A stretch of 64,000 nt of DNA from a virus: IMG/VR virus record IMGVR_UViG_3300029258_004576. The stretch is one strand, 5' to 3'. The position numbers were made by a program, and so were the translations under genes. The stretch's first letter is position 1; each line of letters begins with the position of its first letter. This document shows, in pieces, positions 46,110-63,297 of this stretch. A model generated the notes under the pieces. The model did not search any database. It saw only the letters and a program-made list of their open reading frames with translations, and was not told the origin of the DNA.

Positions 46110-46616
46110 CTAACCGGCTCCCATAGCCTTGTTTTTGAGCTGCTGCTGACGTTGTGCCTGTCTCTTCTGGATGCCCATAATGTAATTGTAAGCCTTCTCC
46201 TTCTTTTTGAGAACACTGTTAGGCTCACTTGTATGCTTCCTGTTTCGCTTCTTGCCCTTGCCGGTCAAGCTGAAACCACCACTGGGCTGACCTTGAGCAT
46301 ACTTGTGCTTCTTCAACATATACTGAGCAATCAACTGACCGCCCTTTGCAGCACCACGAAAACTCGACCCATCCTTCCTCAATTTTTGAAAAATAGCCCT
46401 GACTGCATGTTTGTAAAACACACTCTGCTTGGAAGGACGAGGTGTATGAGCGGCCACCGTCTGACGTCTGTTACGCTGTGCCTTCTGGTAAGGAGTCAAC
46501 TTCGACTTTCGCGCTTCTTCCAGATACTCCACCTCAACCAGCTCGTTCGTCAAGAACTCCAACATGGCCAGCGATTCAGTAAGCGAAAATCTCATCCCAC
46601 TACTACCTCCGATCAT
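46110..46616 (-). CDS. Basic orphan with acidic propeptide
   Basis: VEVEYLEE-ARKSK followed by a highly basic domain; similar to 55015..55440 (KH.Y/F...T.KGK). Confidence 0.65.
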   Translation of the reverse strand: MIGGSSGMRFSLTESLAMLEFLTNELVEVEYLEEARKSKLTPYQKAQRNRRQTVAAHTPRPSKQSVFYKHAVRAIFQKLRKDGSSFRGAAKGGQLIAQYMLKKHKYAQGQPSGGFSLTGKGKKRNRKHTSEPNSVLKKKEKAYNYIMGIQKRQAQRQQQLKNKAMGAG

Positions 46617-47355
46617 TCAACTCACGCATGACCCATTTGGTTATAAGCCTGTCACCCGCCGTGGCACCAAACAGCTTTTCTACTTTGTCGTTTTTCCCAT
46701 CTTTGCCAATTATAATCTGGACATGCTCTCGTGTAGCGCCAGTTCTAGAATTAGGCTTAACCTTGTGATCCATTTTTATAACAAAAGGACCCACCCCTTT
46801 CATCTCTCCAGCCATCTCGATACTACCGTCTTTTTTCAAAACCTTGGACAATACCGAATACACCTTCTTAGCCATCCGACCCTCGATGTAGTCAAACATC
46901 TCCTTCGCATACTTCCAACGATCCGCTCCCCACTCCATCTCGTGCTTCCATGTAGACATGTTCAACTCGAACAAACTCTTCTCCCCAAAAGAAACATCAT
47001 CAATATCACTCCCTGTTTCCACCACATATCCACGATCACGCAAGGAGACACTCTCAGCAACCGTATGAGCATCGTAACCATACCAATGCCCAACTATCCA
47101 AGGATCTACCTTTATACGTACATCCCAACCCTTGTTTATCTCACGCCGTTGTCTGGGTGTAAGATCGTTCAGGAACTGAGTAGCAGGTCCACCCTCTTGG
47201 AAAAACACATTCAAATCACTGCCACCACCATTCTCCCTGCGTACATCAGAAAATGCCTTTGCATATTTCTTACTCACTGGAGAAGCGATAATATTTCCCA
47301 TGGCATCTGTTTTGATGTCGACATTGATTTTCCTTGGCATCCTCATCGGCTTCAC
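46603..47355 (-). CDS. Two-module cargo protein with an internal leader motif
   Basis: Internal VAE-SVSLRDRGYVVE-T at 47017..47043 separates two segments. Confidence 0.65.
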   Translation of the reverse strand: MKPMRMPRKINVDIKTDAMGNIIASPVSKKYAKAFSDVRRENGGGSDLNVFFQEGGPATQFLNDLTPRQRREINKGWDVRIKVDPWIVGHWYGYDAHTVAESVSLRDRGYVVETGSDIDDVSFGEKSLFELNMSTWKHEMEWGADRWKYAKEMFDYIEGRMAKKVYSVLSKVLKKDGSIEMAGEMKGVGPFVIKMDHKVKPNSRTGATREHVQIIIGKDGKNDKVEKLFGATAGDRLITKWVMRELNDRR

Positions 47356-48431: not shown

Positions 48432-51400
48432 TCAGAGCCTGATATACAACCCCGTCTCTTTTTCAAACATATCCTTGAGCATGTCAGCATACACCATGGT
48501 GTATCTCTTCAACTTCTTGAAACCCTTTTTGCCAACTCGACCAAACTGCACATCGTACAAGTCCATGGAAGTGAGAGTAATTTTTACGTAGTTCGGTTTA
48601 CTCCTCAACCTGTTGGGGAATTGAAAAACCAAAGACTTTCCATTGTCGTCAGAGTAAATATGCTTCGCACCGATCATCATTCTCAAACGATTACCACCAC
48701 CCAACTGTTGCAAGATGATGTCAGCCGGAGCCTCTGTCAGATACTCACGCTGTCGAAACCTGGACCCATCCGACTCTTCCATTTCTGCATCACAAGAATC
48801 CCCTAACAAACTGTCTCGAAGCTTTTTAATCACATTCACTTCTTTCAGCTCGACGTCTTCATGTTTCTCATACTTCTCTATCCATTTATATTTTGACTTT
48901 TTATATTTTGTCCCTGCAATATATTGCATCTCCCCATTCCGACGATGATCCCTCACTCGATAATAAACCTTTCCATCCAAACCATCACTGGTTCCAACAT
49001 ACTCATACTTCCCGCTCTCAAGCCCAGTTTTTAACTCTTTATCAGAAACAGGAGAAATCGATTCCTCCAGCTCAACGTCTTCTATATCCTCGGAAAAAAC
49101 AGCCTTAGCACCAACCATCTTGGCAACCTTCTTAGCTGTCTCTTTTGTAAAATTCCAATAAACAGGATGATGCATAACGTTGCTACCTTTTTTAGATAAC
49201 TCACCAGTCATAATATCAATAGCACGTCCACCTACCAGAAACCGTACAGGAATCCCGTTTTTAACAGTTTCTTTTCGCAACTCAACAACCTGACTTGAAG
49301 TAAGTTTCCCCTCATCCAACTCGACGCTTTCTTCACGTTTTGCCAGGTTAGCCTGATCCCAACCTCGAAGCCATACTGACAACAGAGCTTTGGCTCCAGC
49401 ACCAGGCTTCATACCCTTGATCATCCCCATCAAGGTTTTGTCTCTCGCTGGTATCCTTTTCTTACCACTTAAAAAAGCAGCTTTGCCCAGACCTAAAATT
49501 TCTCTTTCGTTATCACTTAATTTAATCTCATCCAGCTCGACGTCTTCATAAGCATGGGCCTTGGCATATGCCAGAAGCTCTTTTTTGATCATGCCCTTAA
49601 CCACTTTTTCAGCACCTGAAGGAGCATTGTCGGATTTCATATTGAAAGCTACGACATCATGAACAGTGTCATAAATAACTTTGCCAGTAGCCAGTTGCTC
49701 TTTGGTTTTCAAACTGTCAACTTTCACATCGTAAGTCACTGTCTTGAACATCTGTCTGCCCACAGTCCCCGTGACCACTATATCCTTGGCACTGCCTGTC
49801 CCTTTTATTTTGAACTTCTTTGGGAAAACAGGACGTTCTATGCCACCCTCGTGCATCTCGATGTCTTCAGTTGATTTAAACACTTTCGGCAACCTTCCTT
49901 TGTTGTCTTGAATAACCTTTTTCACCTTTTTGAAATAATTCCCAAAATGCTTGACGATCTGATCGGGAGTACCCTTCTTTTTCCTCCAACCAAACTTCAC
50001 ACTACCAAAAGCATAGTGCGATCCAGGATCGGGCTTCACCATCAGCTTGCCCCCCGTCGCAATATTTGCCTCCAATTTATCAGCCAATGTGTCGTCTTCG
50101 TTTACCCCGTAAATTATAATCTTATGTAACGCAGGATCGTTCATCATGATCCCGTTCGACCATTTGCTTTTGTCTTTCTCTAATGCCGTAACAAGGTAGA
50201 TATGCTTACGACCCAAACTTGATCTCACCTCACACACCAACACATACCCAGGCGGCATACTCTTTTCAATCTCTGTCTTGATTCGCTTGGCCAGCTTCTG
50301 CGCTTCTCCAGATGGATTACTTGACTTCGAATGACCCAGTATGTTGTACACACCAGCCTCATCTAGCTCGACATCTTCATCAGCTTTTTCACCAACCGGG
50401 ATACCAAGAGGTCCCTTGCCTCTTCCACGAGCGAGCCCTTTACCTTTGCCCTTTGACTTTGTTTTCTTTCCAGGGGTATCACAACCCTCGCTCTTGTCGT
50501 CCAGCTCGATGTTATCGCCAGCTTGGCCACCTAGTAATTCATTCCGCATCTCTCGTATCAAACTGGACGTCCCCATGCCTGTCTCCTTTTTGTCAACATC
50601 CTCCAGATACTTACCTGTTTTCAGTTTACTGATAATAGTATTCGCTTTGTTCGCAGTCATGCTGCCTCGGACACTCCGCAAAGTATTCAATCTCTCTTTG
50701 TACTCCGCTTCATTTTCAGAACGTATCAACATCATAACAAGACCATCGGACTGCCCAAAGGTGATCAGCGATGCCAACATCTTTGGTCCCAACTTGTCTA
50801 TCCAAGGAATTTGCTTCAACAAGTTTACAAGCTGTGGACGACTCATACCAATGTGCTCATGCCCCAAAGGTTTCCCCTCATCCAGCTCGACGTCTTCTCT
50901 CAACTTCTTTGCTTTTGCCAATGCTGATTTCAAAACTGGCAACGCATAATGAGCAGTAGCACCTATCTCATTAAGCCTGTTCATTGCGTGACCACCACAC
51001 TTTTCACATGTCACCCAAGTTCCCTGACCAAAACCACCTGCCTCTGCTTTCCATCCTTGGATAGACTTACAATGACAAGGTTTTTGTTTCCCCTCATCCA
51101 GCTCGACGTCTTCTCTCAGTTTTTTAATAGCTGCATCAATCGCACTCTGCTTATCTGTGCCAAGAGAAATAATCTTCAGCTTTTTCCAACTACCCGATTC
51201 GCTGTCTTTCTCGTCCCTTACATTCTCCTTGTCATAGTCCCCAAACACAACTTCCCAAGGAGACGTCTTGGATGCCTTGCCAGCCAGCACGTAATACCTT
51301 TTGCCTTCGGTGATCTCCACATCCTCATCAAAGCCCATGAGAGCCTTGACATCCTTCTCCACAGCCTTTTTCGTACGACCGAATGTCGTCTCCCATGTCC

Positions 51401-51614
51401 CATCTTTTCTGTACACCTTGGCCATCCACGGCCCTCTTCCGGGGAGATCTGTCTTCTCTATTTCGTACTTCACGTACCGCTTTTTCGCCTCGTCCAACTC
51501 GACATCTTCTGTCGCAGTTTTGTTAGGATCAACCCCCTCGGTAAGTGCCTGCATATCTTTGCCCAAAATGACATCGCGCATTTGTGATAATTCAGTGGAC
51601 TGCATCAACCTCAT
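48432..51614 (-). CDS. Putative protease-processed polyprotein of internal head proteins (~11 modules)
   Basis: Ten EDVE[LIM]xE-type linkers ending at residues 42, 103, 174, 246, 419, 589, 696, 768, 851 and 925, plus FRQREYLTE at 961. Confidence 0.75.
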   Translation of the reverse strand: MRLMQSTELSQMRDVILGKDMQALTEGVDPNKTATEDVELDEAKKRYVKYEIEKTDLPGRGPWMAKVYRKDGTWETTFGRTKKAVEKDVKALMGFDEDVEITEGKRYYVLAGKASKTSPWEVVFGDYDKENVRDEKDSESGSWKKLKIISLGTDKQSAIDAAIKKLREDVELDEGKQKPCHCKSIQGWKAEAGGFGQGTWVTCEKCGGHAMNRLNEIGATAHYALPVLKSALAKAKKLREDVELDEGKPLGHEHIGMSRPQLVNLLKQIPWIDKLGPKMLASLITFGQSDGLVMMLIRSENEAEYKERLNTLRSVRGSMTANKANTIISKLKTGKYLEDVDKKETGMGTSSLIREMRNELLGGQAGDNIELDDKSEGCDTPGKKTKSKGKGKGLARGRGKGPLGIPVGEKADEDVELDEAGVYNILGHSKSSNPSGEAQKLAKRIKTEIEKSMPPGYVLVCEVRSSLGRKHIYLVTALEKDKSKWSNGIMMNDPALHKIIIYGVNEDDTLADKLEANIATGGKLMVKPDPGSHYAFGSVKFGWRKKKGTPDQIVKHFGNYFKKVKKVIQDNKGRLPKVFKSTEDIEMHEGGIERPVFPKKFKIKGTGSAKDIVVTGTVGRQMFKTVTYDVKVDSLKTKEQLATGKVIYDTVHDVVAFNMKSDNAPSGAEKVVKGMIKKELLAYAKAHAYEDVELDEIKLSDNEREILGLGKAAFLSGKKRIPARDKTLMGMIKGMKPGAGAKALLSVWLRGWDQANLAKREESVELDEGKLTSSQVVELRKETVKNGIPVRFLVGGRAIDIMTGELSKKGSNVMHHPVYWNFTKETAKKVAKMVGAKAVFSEDIEDVELEESISPVSDKELKTGLESGKYEYVGTSDGLDGKVYYRVRDHRRNGEMQYIAGTKYKKSKYKWIEKYEKHEDVELKEVNVIKKLRDSLLGDSCDAEMEESDGSRFRQREYLTEAPADIILQQLGGGNRLRMMIGAKHIYSDDNGKSLVFQFPNRLRSKPNYVKITLTSMDLYDVQFGRVGKKGFKKLKRYTMVYADMLKDMFEKETGLYIRL

Positions 51615-51660: not shown

Positions 51661-52374
51661 CTATCTCTTTATGAAATACCGAACCTTGTCATTTTTTCTA
51701 GTTAACGCAAACACTCCCTTGATAGACTTCCACAGACCCTCCTCCTGATTTTCATCAGGATACCTGTGACCATTAAGTCTTTTTAAAACTTCCTCAAACA
51801 TGTTCGCTTTCTCATATCCAAATTTATCCTGAACATCTCGGTACGAACGCATACTAAATGCCTTCTTCCAATCAGCCCCGGTCAGTTTGTGATAGCCCGA
51901 ATCATAATAACCAAGTGTAAGCCAGTATCTCTCAAGAATAGACAACTCACCCTTCCCCAGTTGGCCCCACTTCAACTTAACCCAAACCTCAACAGACGGT
52001 CCAAATCTACCCTTAATAACCGACCCTAAACCACGACCACCATAAATACTAAAAGATGTTTTTTCGTAGGGAATACTAGGATTAGAAACAGCAGGTTCAG
52101 CCCGTAAGAAAATCTTCTCCGCCTTGAACGGTTTAAGACTGTTAGGATCCAGTGCATATCGTACCAAATGTTTACGAGCAACAAGTTGAGGATCAAACCA
52201 ATTACGAGGATCTGATTCATCCAACCAGCTTGTCGTTACAAGTGCTACTTTCCCATCCCAAAAAGAAAATCTAAGACCACTCGGATCTGACACCTCGGTT
52301 TTTGGCAAAAACTTAGGCAAAACCTTACCGGTTGCCTTCTCCTCGGTCAGATACCTACGTCGTCTCAAGTTCAT
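51661..52374 (-). CDS. Putative internal head cargo protein
   Basis: Starts MNLRRRRYLTE-E. Confidence 0.7.
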   Translation of the reverse strand: MNLRRRRYLTEEKATGKVLPKFLPKTEVSDPSGLRFSFWDGKVALVTTSWLDESDPRNWFDPQLVARKHLVRYALDPNSLKPFKAEKIFLRAEPAVSNPSIPYEKTSFSIYGGRGLGSVIKGRFGPSVEVWVKLKWGQLGKGELSILERYWLTLGYYDSGYHKLTGADWKKAFSMRSYRDVQDKFGYEKANMFEEVLKRLNGHRYPDENQEEGLWKSIKGVFALTRKNDKVRYFIKR

Positions 52375-52790
52375 TTTTCCGATCTCCTTTTCATCTCAGC
52401 CTTCAATGGATAGAAAAACTTTCGCAACCATTTGAGCACCGTCTTGTCAACGTTCGCCAACGTCACTTTCCACGACTGCCCATCTGTATAGCCATCTCGG
52501 CTCCACAGATTCGTCTTGACAACCACCTCTCCACCACCCTGTCCCCAAACTTCCATCTCCCAGTCAAACATCTGCCTACCAGAACTCGGCCAAGATCCAG
52601 TCAACGTCCACCCGTTCGGCCTCTTATCCTGGCTGACAAGAGACCGCTCAAACTCTGGAGTAGAATGGAAAAACTTCTCCAGCACGAGCCCCACCCTGTC
52701 ATGCTTACCTCGGCCATCTTTGCCAGGGGTGATAAAAGATCTCCTGGCCTCTCGAAGTACGCAAATAGAACTGGTGAGTGAAAACGTCAC
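52371..52790 (-). CDS. Orphan in the cargo cluster
   Basis: VLRE-A near the N-terminus; GTG start 1 nt after the upstream stop. Confidence 0.55.
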   Translation of the reverse strand: MTFSLTSSICVLREARRSFITPGKDGRGKHDRVGLVLEKFFHSTPEFERSLVSQDKRPNGWTLTGSWPSSGRQMFDWEMEVWGQGGGEVVVKTNLWSRDGYTDGQSWKVTLANVDKTVLKWLRKFFYPLKAEMKRRSEK

Positions 52791-52791
52791 T

Positions 52792-53910
52792 TTACATTCT
52801 GCTCGACAATTCTTTCACCATCTTACCAATGGCAAGCTTTGGACTTGCACTACCCGTAATCGACTCTCGTACCACAATCTCCCCTTTTGCATTTGGAACT
52901 CTCATTTTGAGAACAAAACGAATCTCATCACCATAATGATCCACATGAAATTGCCACGATATTGACAAGTCAGACGAGTTTGTTCCTTCCCCTACTACAA
53001 GAACATGACCATGCCCCATATAGTTTTTCCCAAGCACATCAGCATATGCCTTCTTGGGTATCAACCTGATAAACTCTTCCGCAATGCTCTTATTATAAGG
53101 CGCAATCGCCTTCTCCAACAAAGAACCCTTTGCCCCACCGCCTCCATGCGTCGTCCAGGATTTTCCCTCTTCAAAATACCTACGCTGTCTCAATTTACTC
53201 ATGTCAACTTCTTCTTTCTTAAGCTTCCCCCTCCACGCTTGAGATGGCTTCGTCATGAAATACTGTTTCAATATAATGTCCGCCATATCTCGGCCACTTA
53301 CCCTCAGCAATATGGCGTAAAACCACAACGGAGCATTCTCTGGAATCCGACGAATACCCTTCGCTAAACGAGGTTCTACTTTGCCAACATTTCGAAGCCA
53401 CATCTGAAATGCTTTTTTGGGATTCTTGGCTATTACGTCCTGTGCATCAGCCATGTTGTCCTTGCCCCAAATTATCGGCAACTTATCCCTCGGAATTTTA
53501 TTAATAATCTCCCTCTGACTCTTGAATAAAAATTGCTCAGGATTTTCTATACCTGTCTCCTGCTTGAACCAGTTCAAAATATTGGAGCTTATCTTGAAAG
53601 CTCCAGGTCGAGACGTCCTATCCTCGCCACCCATCGCCAAGCCAGCTGCTACCTTCTGACGCTCGCCCAAGTATTCTCTTCTTCTCAGCTTACTCATTCC
53701 AAATCCCTCGCTTTCTGGTAATTTTGGAACCTTGGCCATGGAGTAGGGTAACTTCGATCTCATGGGCTTACGAGGTTTGATTTTTTTTCGCTGCATCAAC
53801 CGGCTGACCTTCAATCTTTTCTTCGTCAAAGGATCCATTCCAAACGAATCAACATCGTTGTCATCACCAGCTAACTGCTCTACCAACTCAACTATCGATT
53901 CGTCGATCAT
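52792..53910 (-). CDS. Three-module cargo protein with two internal leaders
   Basis: Internal MSKLRRREYLGE-R (ATG 53697) and MSKLRQRRYFEE-G (ATG 53202). Confidence 0.7.
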   Translation of the reverse strand: MIDESIVELVEQLAGDDNDVDSFGMDPLTKKRLKVSRLMQRKKIKPRKPMRSKLPYSMAKVPKLPESEGFGMSKLRRREYLGERQKVAAGLAMGGEDRTSRPGAFKISSNILNWFKQETGIENPEQFLFKSQREIINKIPRDKLPIIWGKDNMADAQDVIAKNPKKAFQMWLRNVGKVEPRLAKGIRRIPENAPLWFYAILLRVSGRDMADIILKQYFMTKPSQAWRGKLKKEEVDMSKLRQRRYFEEGKSWTTHGGGGAKGSLLEKAIAPYNKSIAEEFIRLIPKKAYADVLGKNYMGHGHVLVVGEGTNSSDLSISWQFHVDHYGDEIRFVLKMRVPNAKGEIVVRESITGSASPKLAIGKMVKELSSRM

Positions 53911-53913
53911 GAC

Positions 53914-54561
53914 TCAATCCATCGCACAAAAATAGTGAGTATCGATACCCGCTTTTCGCAACGCTCCACTGACTTCAGAAAACGTCATGCGCTCCAATTT
54001 CCTTCGATTCTTCCTTGCCCACTCATGAAATTTCTTGATCGCTGTAACCTTTCCTCGGGTTGGAGCAATAAGAGTCGGCTCATTATTCCTGTCAACATTA
54101 TCTCTTACCGAAAAATGATCACTGTCCGCATTCACACTGATATACGGAGTGTTGATAACGATAGGTTTAAACCCAGGAGCGGCCACCCTGACGCCTTTGT
54201 ACTGATGTTTCTCTATCTTTGGTGACCCGAGCACCCCCAGCCTGTCCGCCTCGCTCACGATGCCCTCAGCCATCTTCAGAGCCATCTTGTAACTCTTGGC
54301 TCGGTGAACCACTTTGGCAAACTGCTCTATCAACCTCAGAATCTTCGAATCCCTTACGTAATCAATGTCATACAAGGCAAATTCATCAACCATTTTCCCC
54401 CGCTTGCCAGCGTTGGCAAGATCGGTCACACGAATCGACCCACCAAATCGATGAATACGAAAACGATCTGTCTCGATTGTTTGACCTATCGCCAACCCTT
54501 CTTCAATTGAAAACAATCCGACAACAGAACCCAAATACTCGTTAATTTCAGACAGCCTCAT
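53914..54561 (-). CDS. Orphan, paralog of 54582..54998
   Basis: Start MRLSEINEYLG chosen from the AGGAGAGG RBS; SIEE-G precedes the domain. Confidence 0.65.
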   Translation of the reverse strand: MRLSEINEYLGSVVGLFSIEEGLAIGQTIETDRFRIHRFGGSIRVTDLANAGKRGKMVDEFALYDIDYVRDSKILRLIEQFAKVVHRAKSYKMALKMAEGIVSEADRLGVLGSPKIEKHQYKGVRVAAPGFKPIVINTPYISVNADSDHFSVRDNVDRNNEPTLIAPTRGKVTAIKKFHEWARKNRRKLERMTFSEVSGALRKAGIDTHYFCAMD

Positions 54562-54581
54562 ATCACCTCTCCTGACTCTTT

Positions 54582-54998
54582 TTATTTCGCCTTGGGATTC
54601 TTGAACTTTGTTATCCTCAGTTTCAAAGGCTCTACCCAACCATCAGGATCCCCACCCTCTCTCTTGCGAGCTATCTTCTCAGTTGTCGACACAAGCCCCT
54701 TGGCCATACTCAACACATCGCGATAACTACTCGACTTCTTTGCACGAGAAAGAAATTTGTCTAGATGTTTACTGATCTCTGGATCGTCAGCATATGACAA
54801 ATTGTAAACCAGAAATCTTCCCACCGTTTCTCCTGGTTGTTTGTTAGATATATCCGTCACAAGAAAGTCATCCTTGTACATGTTGATTCTCACAGCAGGC
54901 GTCTCATACTGCCGATGACCTCCAAGAACCATCCTGCCAGGAAGCATCATTCTCTCAGCAATGTGTCCCAAATATTCATTGACTTCACAAAGTTTCAT
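54582..54998 (-). CDS. Orphan, paralog of 53914..54561
   Basis: Start MKLCEVNEYLG chosen from the GAGGAG RBS; HIAE-R precedes the domain. Confidence 0.65.
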   Translation of the reverse strand: MKLCEVNEYLGHIAERMMLPGRMVLGGHRQYETPAVRINMYKDDFLVTDISNKQPGETVGRFLVYNLSYADDPEISKHLDKFLSRAKKSSSYRDVLSMAKGLVSTTEKIARKREGGDPDGWVEPLKLRITKFKNPKAK

Positions 54999-55014
54999 AA
55001 CCCGAACTCCTCTT

Positions 55015-55440
55015 TTATCCCCTGGCCTTTGCCAGCATTCGCTCGTAATCACTGACCTTGTCGCTATGCCCCTTCTGAGCAGCCTTCGACTTGCCAGACG
55101 TCTTGCCTTTTTTCGTAGGCACTTGTGATTTCAATCGAAGAAAACCGTGCTTCTGAAGTTGAGCAGTACACACAGCAAAACCCTTGGAAAGTGCTGCCCT
55201 CACTTTGCCCTGATCAGACGAATCCCCCTTGAGTTCCCGCTTCACCACAGCACGTACACACCTCTTTAGTTGAGGTGGCGTCTGCTTGCGTTCCTCAAAA
55301 ATATCTGACAGCCGCACAAACCCTTTATTGTCGTTATACAAACGCCCCATTCGATGCATCGCCGGATTCAAACGTCTCCCCTTAGTTTTAATCAACGTTG
55401 GATATGGATGCATCCACAATTGCCATTCTTCTAAACGCAT
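55015..55440 (-). CDS. Basic orphan (CV...CTAQLQKHG)
   Basis: IFEE-RKQ precedes a basic domain similar to 46110..46616; start uncertain. Confidence 0.6.
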   Translation of the reverse strand: MRLEEWQLWMHPYPTLIKTKGRRLNPAMHRMGRLYNDNKGFVRLSDIFEERKQTPPQLKRCVRAVVKRELKGDSSDQGKVRAALSKGFAVCTAQLQKHGFLRLKSQVPTKKGKTSGKSKAAQKGHSDKVSDYERMLAKARG

Positions 55441-55470: not shown

Positions 55471-55713
55471 TCAATACCCTCGAACCTTCTGCCAAAAAGT
55501 CTCCTTGGTATCGATGGAATTAGACACCTTGAGAATATCTTCTCCAAACTTTTTCAACATCCTCTTAAGCTCTACCTTTTTGTCGGGAGCATTTATCAAT
55601 TTAGGTACCAATTTCTTGACCCTCTTCAACAACACATCCGCAGAATATTCAACGCCCATCACCGTGATAGCCTCTGACAATTCTGTGTAACTTCGTCTTC
55701 TTAAATCCTTCAT
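55471..55713 (-). CDS. Small cargo-like protein with variant leader
   Basis: Starts MKDLRRRSYTELSE-A. Confidence 0.65.
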   Translation of the reverse strand: MKDLRRRSYTELSEAITVMGVEYSADVLLKRVKKLVPKLINAPDKKVELKRMLKKFGEDILKVSNSIDTKETFWQKVRGY

Positions 55714-55721
55714 ATTCTCCC

Positions 55722-56486
55722 CTACGAAACCAACGGCAACACAGGTCCTTGAAAGTCGAGAATCTTCTCTTCCAACTTCTCTTTGTCGTCTCTGGATTCC
55801 TGGATTAACGCCTCGCCATCCAACGTCCTATCCCCACCAGCAGATGGTAATCCACTAGTATACTTCCCCCTGATTCGGCCCAATGTATACTTGGCTTCTG
55901 CCAACGCCCACTCTCTAATCAACCATAGATGTCGAGGATCGTAATGCTCCAATTTGATGTCCTTGGGATCTACTCGATACAAATACACCGCTGTACCAGC
56001 CTCCCTCGGAGGTGGCATCACCCTAAGTAATCGAATATCTGGCTCTGCCAAGTTGTCGTAATAAAACTCCCAATCACACTCAGCCGATAAATACCTCGCA
56101 TCTGACTCCAGCGTTTGAAGCGTCTGCACTATCGTCGTCTGTGGATATTGAGATCCCCACATCATGCCACCACCATAAGGAATTCCCTGTATGTCCAAAA
56201 AACCAGGATACAAAACACCAAAATCAATCCCAGCCACCCGACTGGGAAACCACACCTTCACCACCTTGTCTATCCCCGGCGTAACAGCCGACAAATCATA
56301 CTCGGTTTGATCAGCAATCAGTGTAAGCGTTGCCTCTTTGTGAAGACCGACGAAAGCGTTGTACCACTCCTTTGCATCGTCCATACATTGTGATAGTTGA
56401 CGATCCGTTAATTCAACCTTGACACCACAATCGTCATCCTGTCCCAGCTTTCTCCGTGCCCATACTCGAAATTCCTGAATCTTCAT
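55722..56486 (-). CDS. gp13: Neck / head-tail adaptor (T4 gp13-like)
   Basis: RRKLG...VKVELTDRQLSQCMDDA and EWALAEAKYTLGRIRGKY...LPSAGG...LDGEALIQES. Confidence 0.85.
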   Translation of the reverse strand: MKIQEFRVWARRKLGQDDDCGVKVELTDRQLSQCMDDAKEWYNAFVGLHKEATLTLIADQTEYDLSAVTPGIDKVVKVWFPSRVAGIDFGVLYPGFLDIQGIPYGGGMMWGSQYPQTTIVQTLQTLESDARYLSAECDWEFYYDNLAEPDIRLLRVMPPPREAGTAVYLYRVDPKDIKLEHYDPRHLWLIREWALAEAKYTLGRIRGKYTSGLPSAGGDRTLDGEALIQESRDDKEKLEEKILDFQGPVLPLVS

Positions 56487-57115
56487 CTCAAGTAGCCCCT
56501 CTGTCTCAAGTGACCAAAAGACTCTTGCCTTTCTACATCACCACCTGGCTCCATACCCACATCAGGCGCAAGGGCTGGCACCACAGCCTTCTTTTTCTTC
56601 TGCTTATGCTTGGGTATCACCTTGTTCTTCAGAGCGCAGTGTGTGCACAGTGCGCCATCGATACACGGCTCCTTCGAACCATCTATGACCTTCCCACACT
56701 GGTCACACTTACATTGACCAACTGGGTTTTTCTCCTTGGGAACAACAACCTTGTCCTTCTCTTTAAAATTGTCACTCTTCGGAGCAGACACCTTCTCTTT
56801 CGGAACAGACTCCTTCTCTTTCGGAGCAACCTTTTTCTTCTTTTGCGCTTCATCACCTGACGACTTGGTAGCCTCCAACTTGGCCAGCTCTTTACGCACA
56901 GAAGGACGTCTCAACCTGTTTTTCAGCTCCCTCGCTGCCGCTACAAGTTGTTCGAGATCTCGGCTCTCACACGCAAGGGAAATCTTGGAAACAGCCGTAC
57001 CGAAACTACTCCACCTCTCCTCCTCTATCTTCACCCTGCGATCATTCTCCACCAACTGATCTCGCATATCCTTGAGTATCTTGACACTGCCTCCCAAATC
57101 TCCCAGCCGTGGCAT
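56483..57115 (-). CDS. Hypothetical protein, Lys-rich, with a Cys4 zinc ribbon
   Basis: CDQC...CTHC; ends HLRQRGYLR-stop. Confidence 0.6.
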   Translation of the reverse strand: MPRLGDLGGSVKILKDMRDQLVENDRRVKIEEERWSSFGTAVSKISLACESRDLEQLVAAARELKNRLRRPSVRKELAKLEATKSSGDEAQKKKKVAPKEKESVPKEKVSAPKSDNFKEKDKVVVPKEKNPVGQCKCDQCGKVIDGSKEPCIDGALCTHCALKNKVIPKHKQKKKKAVVPALAPDVGMEPGGDVERQESFGHLRQRGYLR

Positions 57116-59030: not shown

Positions 59031-60524
59031 CTATGGCAAGTTGGTTACCGTGATGATACCGAAGAACTTGTTGTTCACAAGCTTCTTCGCATACCTCGTC
59101 CTCATGCCCTTACGAATCGTGAAGTCTGCTGGGTCGAGGAAAGCAGCCGTCATCTCCAGTGGCACGTACGGCGCATATACCAGACCCGAATCGGTGAAGA
59201 GTGATCCCTTCAATCCAACCAGGATTTTCCCAGACGGGAAGTAAGGATCGATGATCACAGTCCACTTGTTCTGCAAGTAGCCCATGGGATACACACCGTA
59301 CCCAGTTGGAGCCTGCGGGAGAGCAAATGCTTGACGTCCTGTCACGCCCTTACCCTGCGGGATATTTGGAAGCTGGTCAAACACCCTCACGAGGTCGCCA
59401 TGGGTTGCCAACGCACCAAAGATGGGTTGGACACTGGGTCCAATAACCAGGAAGTTTCCTGGCCCTCTGTGGGTCGCTGTGTTGATGCCTCCGGAAACCT
59501 TCTCGATCACGGTCATGATGTTGCGGAAATGATCCGCCTGATTGCGACCAGGGGGTACCGCTGCATCGAAGGTGTCGGTGTTGGTAGTCCCAGAAGCATA
59601 CGCCCGGTTGATCAGCTCGCGATCAATCCCCAGCGCGATCTCAGACGCCACTCCTTGGGTCAGCTCGGGCTCAATATCCATATTGAGCACTGCCCGCATG
59701 TCGTCAGCAGCTTCACTACTCCACATCACCTTGAGCTTACGGCTGTAAGCTTTGATGGCTTCCAGTTGGATGTCGATGTTGACTTGAGGTACGTTCGCAG
59801 CCACTCCCTCCATCGAGTAGTAGTAGTTGGCGATCACGGTGGTTACATCCTCGTCAAAGGTGATGTCATAAACACCAGTTGCCAAAGTGATCGTCGAAGG
59901 TGCCCCGATGTCACCAGCCAACGTGCCAGAACCGTCTGCGTCGTAGATCCTCTTCTCAGATCCATCGCTCACAGCTGTCGCCAGGAATTCTATCCCTACC
60001 TGACCCAGACCGTACGCCTTGACCGCGCTCCAATCCGTGGTGCCAGTGAAGTTGTCCCCAGGGCCAGCACCAATCGTCTCAGCTGCGACGTACTCCGAGG
60101 AGTAGTTCGGATCGAAGTTGTCGATCATGTCGTCGCCAGCGGTGATGGTACCCTTGGTGGTGCCATACTTGTAATCCCAATAGAAGATACCTCCAATGGG
60201 AGAATTCATCGGCTGAATCGAGAACAGACCGTTTGCAATCAAGTTCGACCACACCTTGCGGATGACGGGGAATACAAACTTGACGAGATCGGGGATGTTC
60301 GAAGCGAGTGTGCTCTCAGAGAGATACTTCTGCTTCAACGTCCCCAGATGATTCATCTGGTTCTCGTACAAACACGCCATGCATCGACGGGTCCAGCTGT
60401 CGTCAATCTCCTCCAACATTCCAGCCCATTTGGCCTGGAGCGCCACGTTGACATCTTCGTCCAGGATCGTTCCCACGCTGTTCTCTTTTGCATCGCTGTT
60501 CAAAAAATCTCTTGCTTCATTCAT
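59031..60524 (-). CDS. gp23: Major capsid protein (T4 gp23 family)
   Basis: FPVIRKV...SIQPMNSPIGGIFYWDY, SRKLKVMWSSEAADD, EIALGIDRE, GLVYAPYVPL...KGMRTRY; predicted propeptide ends YLSE70. Confidence 0.97.
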   Translation of the reverse strand: MNEARDFLNSDAKENSVGTILDEDVNVALQAKWAGMLEEIDDSWTRRCMACLYENQMNHLGTLKQKYLSESTLASNIPDLVKFVFPVIRKVWSNLIANGLFSIQPMNSPIGGIFYWDYKYGTTKGTITAGDDMIDNFDPNYSSEYVAAETIGAGPGDNFTGTTDWSAVKAYGLGQVGIEFLATAVSDGSEKRIYDADGSGTLAGDIGAPSTITLATGVYDITFDEDVTTVIANYYYSMEGVAANVPQVNIDIQLEAIKAYSRKLKVMWSSEAADDMRAVLNMDIEPELTQGVASEIALGIDRELINRAYASGTTNTDTFDAAVPPGRNQADHFRNIMTVIEKVSGGINTATHRGPGNFLVIGPSVQPIFGALATHGDLVRVFDQLPNIPQGKGVTGRQAFALPQAPTGYGVYPMGYLQNKWTVIIDPYFPSGKILVGLKGSLFTDSGLVYAPYVPLEMTAAFLDPADFTIRKGMRTRYAKKLVNNKFFGIITVTNLP

Positions 60525-60581: not shown

Positions 60582-62126
60582 TTAATTCCCAGTTTTCCTC
60601 TCAGCAGAAATTCCTGACCGTTTCTGCAACTCCGACATCGGAACGCCCATGACCGTGACGTCTTCTTCTATCGACACCCTTAGATCATCGTCACTATCCA
60701 AATGCCTTGGCCTGCTACTGATTATCTGACTTCGAATTTCCTCGAACTCTCTCGATGGAGGGTTGTCAGCCTTGAACGATTCGACCAGCTTGTCCACACC
60801 CTCTTTGTTGCTCGGTTGCACCGAATCAATGTGCTCGCGCAACCTCGAAGCCTGTGGACTACCTGATATTTTCCGCTCAATGTAAGCCCGAATACCAAAT
60901 TGCTTGCTAATGGCCAAAGCTTTATCTCGTTGTTCCGTAACGAGATTAACCTTCTTCTCCAACTGAGCAATCCTGTCTTCAAACTCCTCTTTGACATCGT
61001 CTCCCTCGGCAAGAGCAGTAGATATTTCTTCTACCCTGCCTGCAAGATCGTCAAGTGTCTCAAAGTCTGTGACATCACCCAACATCTCGATAATCTGATC
61101 AGCTCGCTCATTGTCCCTAAGCTCTCGCTCCAGGTGCAGATGATAGCCAAATTCCTTGGCAATAACAGACAGCTCCTCAGCTTCCTGCCTTACCTCAGCT
61201 ATCTCCTCGTCCTGCTCGGCAATCTTGCGCTCTAATTCCTGATTGTGAGCCTTGAGTTTTGTCACTTCGTGATTCGTGTCTTCCGACAAAATGAAGGGAG
61301 TCACGATCCTCTTGATCTCCTCCAAGGCAAGGGATGAGCCTGCCACTTCGGGATCCTCTAGCAATTGGCCACGAGCCACTTCAACAGCTTCCTCCCGGAT
61401 GGATTCTCCCTCTGACCGAAGCCGTTCTTCAAATTCCTCGCGCAATGCCTCCCGCGCATGGGTCCGTGCATCTGACTCAATCTCTTTCGTCAGTTCCTCT
61501 ACCAGCTCGGGGTGTTCTTCTTTTAATTTTCCCAGATCCATCATCTCTGTATTCTCCTTATGCTCCACCACAAAATCAGGGTGGGCACCAGCGTTTGCCG
61601 GATCAGCTACGATGTCCCAGGTGACCAACTTGTAGTCCTCCTGGACGACATCATTCCCTTTGTTGTCAGTAGCCGTTGTTCCAAAACCTCGACTACTCAC
61701 ACCCAATTTGCCACCTGCTTTCGCAATCGCAAGGGCCTGATCTCCGTTGACGGTGCCAGGGATGAACTCAATCACACCTTTTATTTCACCGTCCTCTGCG
61801 ATAGCCGCCTCGGTCACAAAATGACTCACACGAGCAAGTTTTGTCTTCCCGTCTCCGGGATGATCCAACTCACCAAACACCTTGCGACCTTGCATATCCT
61901 CACTCAAACGATTGATTTCTCTCACCATGAGTTTACGAGGATAAAGACGTTTATTCGCTGTAGCCTGATCCGTTAGCCCTAACCTGCCCTTGAGGTATGG
62001 ACGCTTGCCTTCGCCTTCACCTTCATGCAAATCTTCGGGTGAAAACTCCAACACAACAACGTCTTCAAGGAGATCCTTCCCCTCGGGGATTTCAACTTCT
62101 TGGATCTGGAGTACTTTTCTCTTCAT
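60582..62126 (-). CDS. gp21: Prohead maturation protease (T4 gp21 family) fused to a C-terminal scaffold
   Basis: N.RLYP, GELDHP (His), GVSSRGFG (Ser), WDIVADPA (Asp), then ~320 aa of acidic coiled coil. Confidence 0.92.
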   Translation of the reverse strand: MKRKVLQIQEVEIPEGKDLLEDVVVLEFSPEDLHEGEGEGKRPYLKGRLGLTDQATANKRLYPRKLMVREINRLSEDMQGRKVFGELDHPGDGKTKLARVSHFVTEAAIAEDGEIKGVIEFIPGTVNGDQALAIAKAGGKLGVSSRGFGTTATDNKGNDVVQEDYKLVTWDIVADPANAGAHPDFVVEHKENTEMMDLGKLKEEHPELVEELTKEIESDARTHAREALREEFEERLRSEGESIREEAVEVARGQLLEDPEVAGSSLALEEIKRIVTPFILSEDTNHEVTKLKAHNQELERKIAEQDEEIAEVRQEAEELSVIAKEFGYHLHLERELRDNERADQIIEMLGDVTDFETLDDLAGRVEEISTALAEGDDVKEEFEDRIAQLEKKVNLVTEQRDKALAISKQFGIRAYIERKISGSPQASRLREHIDSVQPSNKEGVDKLVESFKADNPPSREFEEIRSQIISSRPRHLDSDDDLRVSIEEDVTVMGVPMSELQKRSGISAERKTGN

Positions 62127-62151: not shown

Positions 62152-63297
62152 CTAGCCAGCTGCCCGCTTGCCAGCCCGCTTGCCAGTACTCTTCCTCTTC
62201 GCTTTGCCCTTGGCATACTTCAGAGCCTGACCAGGTGCTACCTTGCCACCCTTGACTTGAGCCAAATACCCAAGAAGAGCTTCCTTATTCTTTACATCTT
62301 TTCGCATCGCTATCTGCTTCTTTGCAGCACCTTTGCCATGCGCCATTGCCCAAGCTGACTTGCCAGCTTTGGTGACCGTACCCTTTGGATTCAGCATCTT
62401 ACGCTTTTTCAAAGGTGGTCGACGCTCTTGAAGATACATGTTTTCCCGTATCCCCTCAGCCGCCTCGTGAAAAGGATTGCCTACACCTTCCTCGAAGTCT
62501 TCCTCTTCCTCTTCATCCTCGAAGTCGTCTTCATCCTCGAAGTCGTCCTCTTCTTCCTCTTCGTCGTCCTCTTCGAGCAGACCATACTCCTCCCACAGAT
62601 CTCCGACATGCTCCATGGCGTCAGCCAATGTGGCTTCCAACATTTCGTCTTCGTCCATATCGAGCACTCCGCCCATGTCTTCCATCTGCTTGAGAATCGC
62701 TTCTGCATTCAAAGAGAGTTCAAGAATCTTAGAAGCCGCTTCATTGTCCTCATCCATCACCTTTATCGCTGCCATCTCACCCAGGTCAGCAATATGGTTG
62801 AAAGCTTCCACGAACTCGTCAAAACGAGATACAGGATCTCGCTCGATGGATTCTGCCAGCACACCCAGCTCGTCCATCAGCCCCTCGTGCATCGAAGAAA
62901 ACCCGTCGACGTCCACATCAGACACCACACGACGAGTTCTCGCACCACCCTTGGACATACTGGCCAGTTTTTTCTGACGACGTTTGTAAGCACCTGTCTT
63001 GCGCTTCTGCTTCATCGCCCTCTTGATTTTTTGCTTATTCCGTTTGTAAGCCTGTCTGGCCTTCTGTCTCGACTTCGCAGTCCCCTTCTTGAGCCGAACA
63101 ACCCGCTCGTCCAGCTCTTCAGAATCCTCGTCGTCTACCATGTCGCTCAGGTAGACATCTCCCTCGAAGTCATCTTCCGATTCCTCCTCCTCAAAACCCG
63201 CCTCTTCCTGTTCACATACCACGTCCAGTGACTCACGGATTTCCTTGGAAGAAAGACCCATGCTTTGGAAGTCTTCTTCGAGTCGTCGTACTCTCAT
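62152..63297 (-). CDS. Prohead core protein (gp67/gp68-like acidic and basic blocks)
   Basis: Alternating poly-E/D and K/R blocks; ELDE-R and YLQE-R precede the basic blocks. Confidence 0.6.
   Translation of the reverse strand: MRVRRLEEDFQSMGLSSKEIRESLDVVCEQEEAGFEEEESEDDFEGDVYLSDMVDDEDSEELDERVVRLKKGTAKSRQKARQAYKRNKQKIKRAMKQKRKTGAYKRRQKKLASMSKGGARTRRVVSDVDVDGFSSMHEGLMDELGVLAESIERDPVSRFDEFVEAFNHIADLGEMAAIKVMDEDNEAASKILELSLNAEAILKQMEDMGGVLDMDEDEMLEATLADAMEHVGDLWEEYGLLEEDDEEEEEDDFEDEDDFEDEEEEEDFEEGVGNPFHEAAEGIRENMYLQERRPPLKKRKMLNPKGTVTKAGKSAWAMAHGKGAAKKQIAMRKDVKNKEALLGYLAQVKGGKVAPGQALKYAKGKAKRKSTGKRAGKRAAG

Follow-up and report, generated by a model that had tools for sequence, protein, structure and literature searches.

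Introduction

The CTS of bacteriophage T4 is the textbook route by which a phage loads proteins into its head. This capsid-targeting leader of 10 residues is common to unrelated internal proteins, its front part being responsible for targeting and its residues 8 and 10 directing processing (PMC9026906, PMC3012670, PMC5694885). Lengths of 10–20 residues are given for the T4 CTS, and gp21 cuts after Glu at L/I-X-E (PMC9026906, PMC5694885). Engineered fusions of T4 IPIII with foreign proteins were packed into the head and processed (Mullaney and Black, reviewed in PMC9026906). Head and ejection proteins are cleaved at multiple sites in the giant phages phiKZ, 201phi2-1 and SPN3US, where a diverged gp21 homologue cuts many head proteins at short motifs, after Glu, and a propeptide can hold several cut sites. 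Besides, phages and conjugative elements encode polyvalent proteins, in which enzyme domains can be recognised and a metallopeptidase of their own is often included (Iyer et al., 2017, PMC5512222).

A related arrangement is found around a 372-aa open reading frame (ORF372) of an uncultured virus. As with the T4 CTS, which is removed by gp21 from IPI, IPII, IPIII and Alt, a short leader stands in front of unrelated small proteins of variable cargo (PMC9026906, PMC3012670, PMC5694885). The T4 leader has a targeting front, processing residues at P3 and P1 and an L/I-x-Glu end, and the ORF372 tag likewise ends in hydrophobic-x-Glu. Like T4, this phage has genes for a protease of the gp21 family and a capsid protein of the gp23 family. 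Its tag is basic and aromatic (LRxRxYLxE), a sequence that we take to be unlike the T4 CTS, and it is also found inside ORFs between modules, a position that is not described for the T4 CTS and for which we know of no T4 precedent. The cargos match no PHROG or Pfam family, and no sequence homology to IPI, IPII, IPIII or Alt was found for them in these two collections. In view of this lack of homology, ORF372 is considered an analogue of the CTS proteins and not a member.

The proteins described below, in which a carrier is followed by a tag and a cargo, resemble the T4 IPIII fusions in having a leader carrier and an in-frame cargo; these fusions were man-made, whereas the present forms are natural and recurrent, with several cargos per carrier. 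The giant-phage proteins differ by their S/A/G-x-E motif, their long propeptides and the absence of a shared 12-residue tag between independent modules. Like ORF372, polyvalent proteins gather, in one polypeptide encoded among virion genes and thought to be delivered together with the DNA, unrelated domains that also occur alone. Unlike theirs, the ORF372 modules are small, have no Pfam domain, give weak fold matches (best Z 6.2) and appear to be joined by head-protease sites. What is new here is the comparative evidence of split versus fused states, together with the carrier, tag and cargo layout. From these data, we propose with a probability of roughly 70% that ORF372 encodes a mini-polyprotein of capsid cargo that is cleaved at its tags.

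Genome setting of ORF372

The window analysed is a stretch of 64,000 nucleotides corresponding to the reverse strand of bases 36106–100105 of a 142,254-base IMG/VR virus record, whose completeness is estimated at 86%. All genes of the window are carried by its minus strand, including ORF372, which runs from an ATG at 53910 to a TAA at 52792. Upstream of it, a gene located at 59031–60524 encodes a gp23-type major capsid protein (PF07068 at 2e-60). Since this protein is only about 30% identical to that of any GenBank phage, the virus belongs to a deep, uncultured T4-like lineage. No match to ORF372 was obtained by tblastn against 50,697 GenBank phage records, and its three modules (A, B and C) appear to be carried by no cultured phage. 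PHROG and Pfam searches with ORF372 and its parts matched no family, and a pattern search of IMG/VR with ORF372 returned zero relatives. Exhaustive searching of 1.84 billion cluster representatives with HMMER gave 101 proteins, the relatives coming from an all-against-all search of representatives and from capsid-protein loci; a word-indexed homologue search with module C alone as query gave no matches. An assembly artefact was ruled out as the source of the fusion, which is real, because the exact 372-aa protein is encoded by 12 contigs from several independent sequencing runs.

Table 1. Coordinates of ORF372, its parts and related features in the window.
Feature	Position	Strand	Remarks
Whole ORF	52792..53910	-	372 aa + stop, probable precursor of three modules
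N-terminal leader of another type, residues 1-11, MIDESIVELVE, L-V-E before Q12 (probable)	53878..53910	-	inferred
Module A, residues 12-71	53698..53877	-	acidic GDDNDVDxFGMD stretch, then very basic stretch
Shine-Dalgarno-like core GAGGG	53705..53709	-	8 nt before ATG 53697
Internal tag 1, residues 72-83, MSKLRRREYLGE; predicted cut E83/R84	53662..53697	-	pLDDT ~47-58
Module B, residues 84-236, all-helical domain, start RQK	53203..53661	-	model and ~90 clusters
Internal tag 2, residues 237-248, MSKLRQRRYFEE; predicted cut E248/G249	53167..53202	-	no SD core upstream
Module C, residues 249-372, helix + five-strand sheet + helix	52795..53166	-	model of C alone
Neighbouring tag-headed gene	51661..52374	-	starts MNLRRRRYLTE
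Second carrier + tag + cargo protein, 250 aa, internal tag 47017-47043	46603..47355	-	P0104-P0108
1060-aa polyprotein, last module after internal tag 48732-48758	48432..51614	-	phrog_9437
KQKYLSE, capsid protein residues 64-70, probable propeptide cut before S71	60315..60335	-	cut inferred
Prohead protease, T4 gp21 type, coiled-coil C-terminal extension of ~320 aa	60582..62126	-	PF03420 6e-12, phrog_207

Module anatomy and structure models

ORF372 contains two complete copies of a 12-residue tag, M-S-K-L-R-x-R-x-Y-[LF]-x-E, which join its modules (Table 1). The initial annotation had noticed two in-frame ATGs in this ORF, at 53697 and 53202, the first being preceded by GAGGG; both were found to open a copy of the tag and the GAGGG is present. 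Residues 1–11 are probably a leader too. This is supported by P0097, in which module A starts with MNLRQRGYVFE followed by Q, i.e., an LR-type tag placed exactly at the position of MIDESIVELVE. The LVEQ/LEEL pattern is retained across the module A homologues.

In the AlphaFold2 model of the whole ORF (pTM 0.44), both joints were of low confidence and module A of low to moderate confidence; the helical core of module B (residues ~120–215) reached pLDDT values of 94–98. Since MAFFT with all modules together (alignments A1 and A2) misplaced the C homologues onto the columns of B, module C was aligned (A4) and folded separately. Modelled alone, it gave a pLDDT of 82 and a pTM of 0.78, its 12 tag residues (1–12) staying below a pLDDT of 50. 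According to these models, the tag and the joints are disordered, and B and C are confidently predicted as separate domains. Fold searches with the full model and with module C, by Foldseek against the PDB, by VIA-align wide (best Z 6.2) and in the ESM Atlas (TM ≤0.44), returned weak and mutually unrelated matches, none of them extending across two modules.

Split and fused states in relatives

Each third of ORF372 was recovered as a stand-alone gene in relatives: module A as a 69-aa gene in L003–L005, module C as a 136-aa gene in L002, and module B after short leaders. Solo ORFs of module A measure 53–84 aa, the 69-aa genes lying at the syntenic place. In L003, the same gene order is observed from the capsid protein through the neck adaptor to the spot of ORF372. 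There, the 69-aa gene ends just at the expected start of the tag and is immediately followed by a homologue of the window gene 52371–52790. The solo gene of module C in L002 (P0012) starts with MSTLRKRSYLEE and lies directly upstream of another homologue of this gene; further solo copies of module C are P0075 and P0098. Module B was found in about 90 protein clusters; in half of these it is N-terminal, after a short leader, and in the other half it is an internal part of larger proteins, the longest having 2118 aa. The smallest proteins made of a leader and B are about 160–190 aa long.

Besides these solo genes, ten diverged proteins consist of module A, then the full tag, then differing cargo, the tag motif being kept at the joint in all ten. 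The cargo is B in P0001, P0002 and P0004, C in P0069, and another one in P0065, P0070, P0076, P0080, P0081 and P0094. This layout is old and conserved. In P0003 and P0007, module B precedes an internal tag and other cargos. P0002 terminates at KLRKED, 2–3 residues short of the start of tag 2 in the window, and its TGA stop shares bases with the ATG of the tag-headed gene that follows. At the B–C joint, the window reads GTTGACATG and L006 reads TTGATG, in which a TGA stop and the following ATG overlap. A possible fusion of the frames by small indels is suggested by this comparison, which is an illustration only because the downstream genes differ. As a whole, these data show that ORF372 is made of three independently occurring and independently folding modules joined by two complete tags. 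The alternative in which the parts always occur fused and fold as one domain is not what was found, the modules being split in relatives and C being predicted to fold alone.

Downstream of the variable A/B/C slot, all relatives seen have the same fixed neighbour, a homologue of the gene 52371–52790 (minus strand). This gene and its homologues have a third conserved N-terminal stretch, ending in L-x-E: CVLRE/ARRSFITPG in the window, DLLRE/RRAFITPG in L007 and DLLNE/YKTFVTPG in L003.

Distribution of the tag in the record

The tag motif [LF]RxRxY[LIVF]xE opens at least seven further ORFs of the 142-kb record. A loose version of the pattern gave 12 matches on the coding strand of the record, 11 of which are clear copies, whereas 50 base shuffles averaged 1.8 matches and never exceeded 5. 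Seven to eight copies begin at residue 2–4 of an ORF. The 7–8 ORFs starting with M-x(0-2)-LRxRxY[LIVF]xE have unrelated bodies, and the same holds in relatives L007, L008 and L016. Four copies are internal, two in ORF372, one in ORF 46603–47355 and one in the 1060-aa ORF. Every copy in the window terminates with Y-[LIVF]-x-E. Since the copies use differing synonymous codons, it is the peptide that is conserved and selected, and not a DNA repeat. An LR-type tag also opens three ORFs outside the window, at C1:22006, 22341 and 102556 of the genome (MLRYRTYLAE, MSLRRREYLDE and MSLRRRQYLAE), hence the tagged genes extend beyond the 10-kb island.

Two variants were observed in addition. An 80-aa ORF (55471–55713, minus strand) starts with MKDLRRRSYTELSE, a variant tag in which the Glu is shifted. 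A Cys-rich 210-aa ORF (56483–57115, minus strand) ends with LRQRGYLR (last 8 codons at ~56486–56509), which is tag-like without the Glu, and its TGA overlaps the ATG of a gp13-like adaptor gene. This tag-like C-terminus is retained in L007 as LRRRRYLR and may be an uncleaved docking motif.

The internal leaders noticed earlier in ORF 46603–47355 and at the end of the polyprotein were confirmed as LRDRGYVVE and FRQREYLTE, respectively. In P0105–P0108, the N-terminal half of ORF 46603–47355 and the tag are followed by four different cargos, two of which also occur as modules in the polyprotein of the window; the C-terminal half exists alone as P0104. The last module of the 1060-aa ORF (phrog_9437) is a solo gene in L007 and L008, where it starts with MSLRRRAYLSE. 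Thus, in this polyprotein of the same island, the last module follows an LR-type tag as in ORF372, whereas the remaining joints are of the EDVELDE type (ten linkers) and those of ORF372 are full start-of-gene tags with Met. In relatives, long polyproteins have repeated linkers of their own, of the [LIV]-D-E type, e.g., five EDVDDLDE in P0038, which indicates that the polyprotein habit is widespread in the group.

A second type of leader, M-[RK]-L-x-E-[IV]-N-E-Y-L-G, was seen in the paralogous genes 53914–54639 and 54582–55052 (minus strand), which probably start at the internal ATGs 54561 and 54998. In P0016, module B stands behind such a leader, with MNLSERNEYLKGIAGELTE before RQK, and in L007 MSLEHINEVLRGAVGELTE precedes AQK.

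Internal starts and origin of the fusion

The presence of complete gene starts within ORF372 raises the possibility of nested genes, with translation starting at ATG 53697 and/or 53202 too and yielding tag-B-C and tag-C, each headed by a normal tag and perhaps as the main products, the long ORF being the by-product of a lost stop. Both joints keep Met-Ser-Lys as in solo genes, e.g., MSKLRQRGY in L002. A Shine-Dalgarno core (GGAG, GAGG or AGGA, 5–17 nt upstream of ATG) precedes 57% of the ORF starts against just 11% of the internal in-frame ATGs, and ATG 53697 has one in the GAGGG located 8 nt upstream. Moreover, 8 of 19 internal joints have a Met no further than four residues upstream of the tag, whereas 13% would be expected (binomial tail 0.0015, with the relatedness of joints uncorrected). 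On the other hand, ATG 53202 has no such core, half of the ten relatives with an A-cargo joint have no Met there although the full tag is kept, and in the second carrier family none of the four internal tags has a Met, nor do two internal tags in the window. Since the full tag persists at joints without Met, it acts there as a peptide. Nested genes are therefore considered unlikely as the explanation of ORF372. Internal initiation is possible, mainly at the first joint, the internal starts not being conserved in relatives, and nested starts and cleavage can coexist.

The Met residues near internal tags fit with fossils of former start codons and would support an origin by gene fusion. It was proposed in the initial annotation that formerly separate leader-tagged genes were fused by stop-codon loss. 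The fusion is supported by the solo modules and by the excess of Met; stop-codon loss as the sole route is not, cargo exchange by recombination inside the tag being as likely a route as repeated stop-codon loss. Indeed, recombination within the conserved tag would keep the reading frame and swap cargos between solo and fused contexts, so that repeated stop-codon loss would be unnecessary. Tentatively, and with chances somewhat short of even, the tag may be a standard in-frame joint at which recombination or the loss of a stop moves cargo among the states of solo gene, carrier passenger and polyprotein bead, since every cassette starts with the same peptide ending in a protease site. Module A and the N-terminal half of ORF 46603–47355 would then be dedicated carriers, and ORF372 an intermediate caught between a tagged operon and a processed polyprotein.

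Predicted cut-site signature and head protease

Among 52 homologues of module B, P1 is Glu in 49 and P3 is L, I or V in 47, while P2 varies. The site follows an N-terminal leader of 6–26 aa in 26 of them and is internal in the other 26. The leader sequence varies by lineage and the mature RQK start is kept, which is what a lineage-specific cleavable targeting propeptide predicts. Both the P3/P1 signature and the leader lengths match the L/I-X-E rule of T4 gp21 and the length of the T4 CTS. The Glu before B could partly belong to the domain itself.

The tagged genes belong to the block of head and neck genes, and the corresponding protease gene is located about 7 kb from ORF372. Its product gave a match to 5JBL, the structure of T4 gp21, at an E-value of 1e-9 and retains both catalytic residues, His89 (GELDHP) and Ser145 (VSSRG). 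The capsid protein has a site similar to the tag end, KQKYLSE before S71, at its probable propeptide cut. There, six relatives of 69–76% identity keep the pattern [LMI]K-x-[RKQH]-x-L-x-E with [SA]TL after it; an alternative cut site is LYE before N55. The alignment with T4 gp23 begins at residue 82 only and does not extend to the propeptide. The complex predicted between residues 25–200 of the protease and the A–B joint (60–100) scored 0.02, which carries no weight for or against cleavage.

The same motifs could instead be binding or linker elements (for DNA, scaffold or chaperone) of an uncut three-domain protein of 42 kDa. The conservation at internal joints of the whole tag, beyond hydrophobic-x-Glu, would be consistent with this, as would the Glu-less ending of the 210-aa ORF kept in L007, which suggests that binding is separable from cutting. 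Yet the modules recombine freely and occur solo in relatives, the tags are disordered in the models, a matching protease gene lies nearby, and Glu at P1 with L/I/V at P3 stands before B in about 90% of the homologues, whatever the leader, which makes an uncut protein very improbable. Recognition of the tag by a modifying enzyme such as a radical-SAM maturase, in place of a role as capsid signal, is scarcely credible, as no radical-SAM gene was found in the 142-kb record (86% complete), the tagged genes lie within the head-neck block and the tag ends in a gp21 motif.

Proposed processing of ORF372 and its implications

The tag is best read as a propeptide of the T4 type for capsid targeting and protease cleavage, so that proteolysis would undo the fusion. 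Since the tag is kept at each joint, the product is most likely cut into three by the head protease. ORF372 joins units that are independent elsewhere and contains repeated predicted protease sites, i.e., two tags and the N-terminal LVE, which is the make-up of a polyprotein. The precursor would be a late product that enters the prohead core by means of one or more of its tags, the basic and aromatic tag front docking it there by analogy with the T4 CTS. The gp21-type protease would then cut after E83 and E248, and probably after E11, freeing A as a basic peptide of ~8 kDa, B as a helical protein of ~19 kDa and C as an alpha/beta protein of ~14 kDa. These products would stay inside the head until infection and exit together with the DNA. 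Any role of the modules in anti-defence or take-over is only an analogy with the T4 internal proteins. Under such processing, the fusion of two tag-headed genes would be nearly neutral because the cut restores separate products. This low cost would explain the occurrence of split, fused and long-polyprotein cargos in relatives.

Several points go against cleavage. If the cut fell after Glu only, the upstream product would retain the 12 tag residues at its C-terminus. A short motif suffices for T4 gp21, yet the whole tag is conserved at the internal joints, which hints at another role or at internal initiation. The ATG is retained at both joints, with a good Shine-Dalgarno core at the first one. 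Finally, the adjacent 1060-aa polyprotein uses a different linker, EDVELDE.

With cleavage at the tags as the preferred reading, the locus suggests that the CTS principle was extended in uncultured T4-like phages by an inter-module tag and several cargos per precursor. It also gives a view, at the level of sequence, of how polyproteins can arise from neighbouring genes and split again, the different states being found in different relatives. The tag together with the hydrophobic-x-Glu rule would predict the set of injected proteins of such phages from their sequence, and would supply phage engineering with a natural model for packaging several cargos.

Further observations on the head protease and its neighbour

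A very acidic protein is encoded at 62152–63297 (minus strand). Its C-terminal piece is basic and follows another Y-L-x-E site, ENMYLQE before RRPP. The protein is a candidate core or scaffold protein and possibly a docking partner of the basic tags. The coiled-coil tail of ~320 aa of the protease is conserved in relatives, and the gene 60582–62126 possibly encodes a protease-scaffold fusion; in T4, genes 21 and 22 are separate. In the protease of one relative, whose capsid protein is 76% identical (L016:7207–9969, plus strand), an insertion of ~400 aa is found directly after the catalytic His-Pro, with GELDHP followed by C...GN and then S. This insertion looks like an intein with a homing-endonuclease part, the Pfam match to Intein_splicing being weak (E 0.05).
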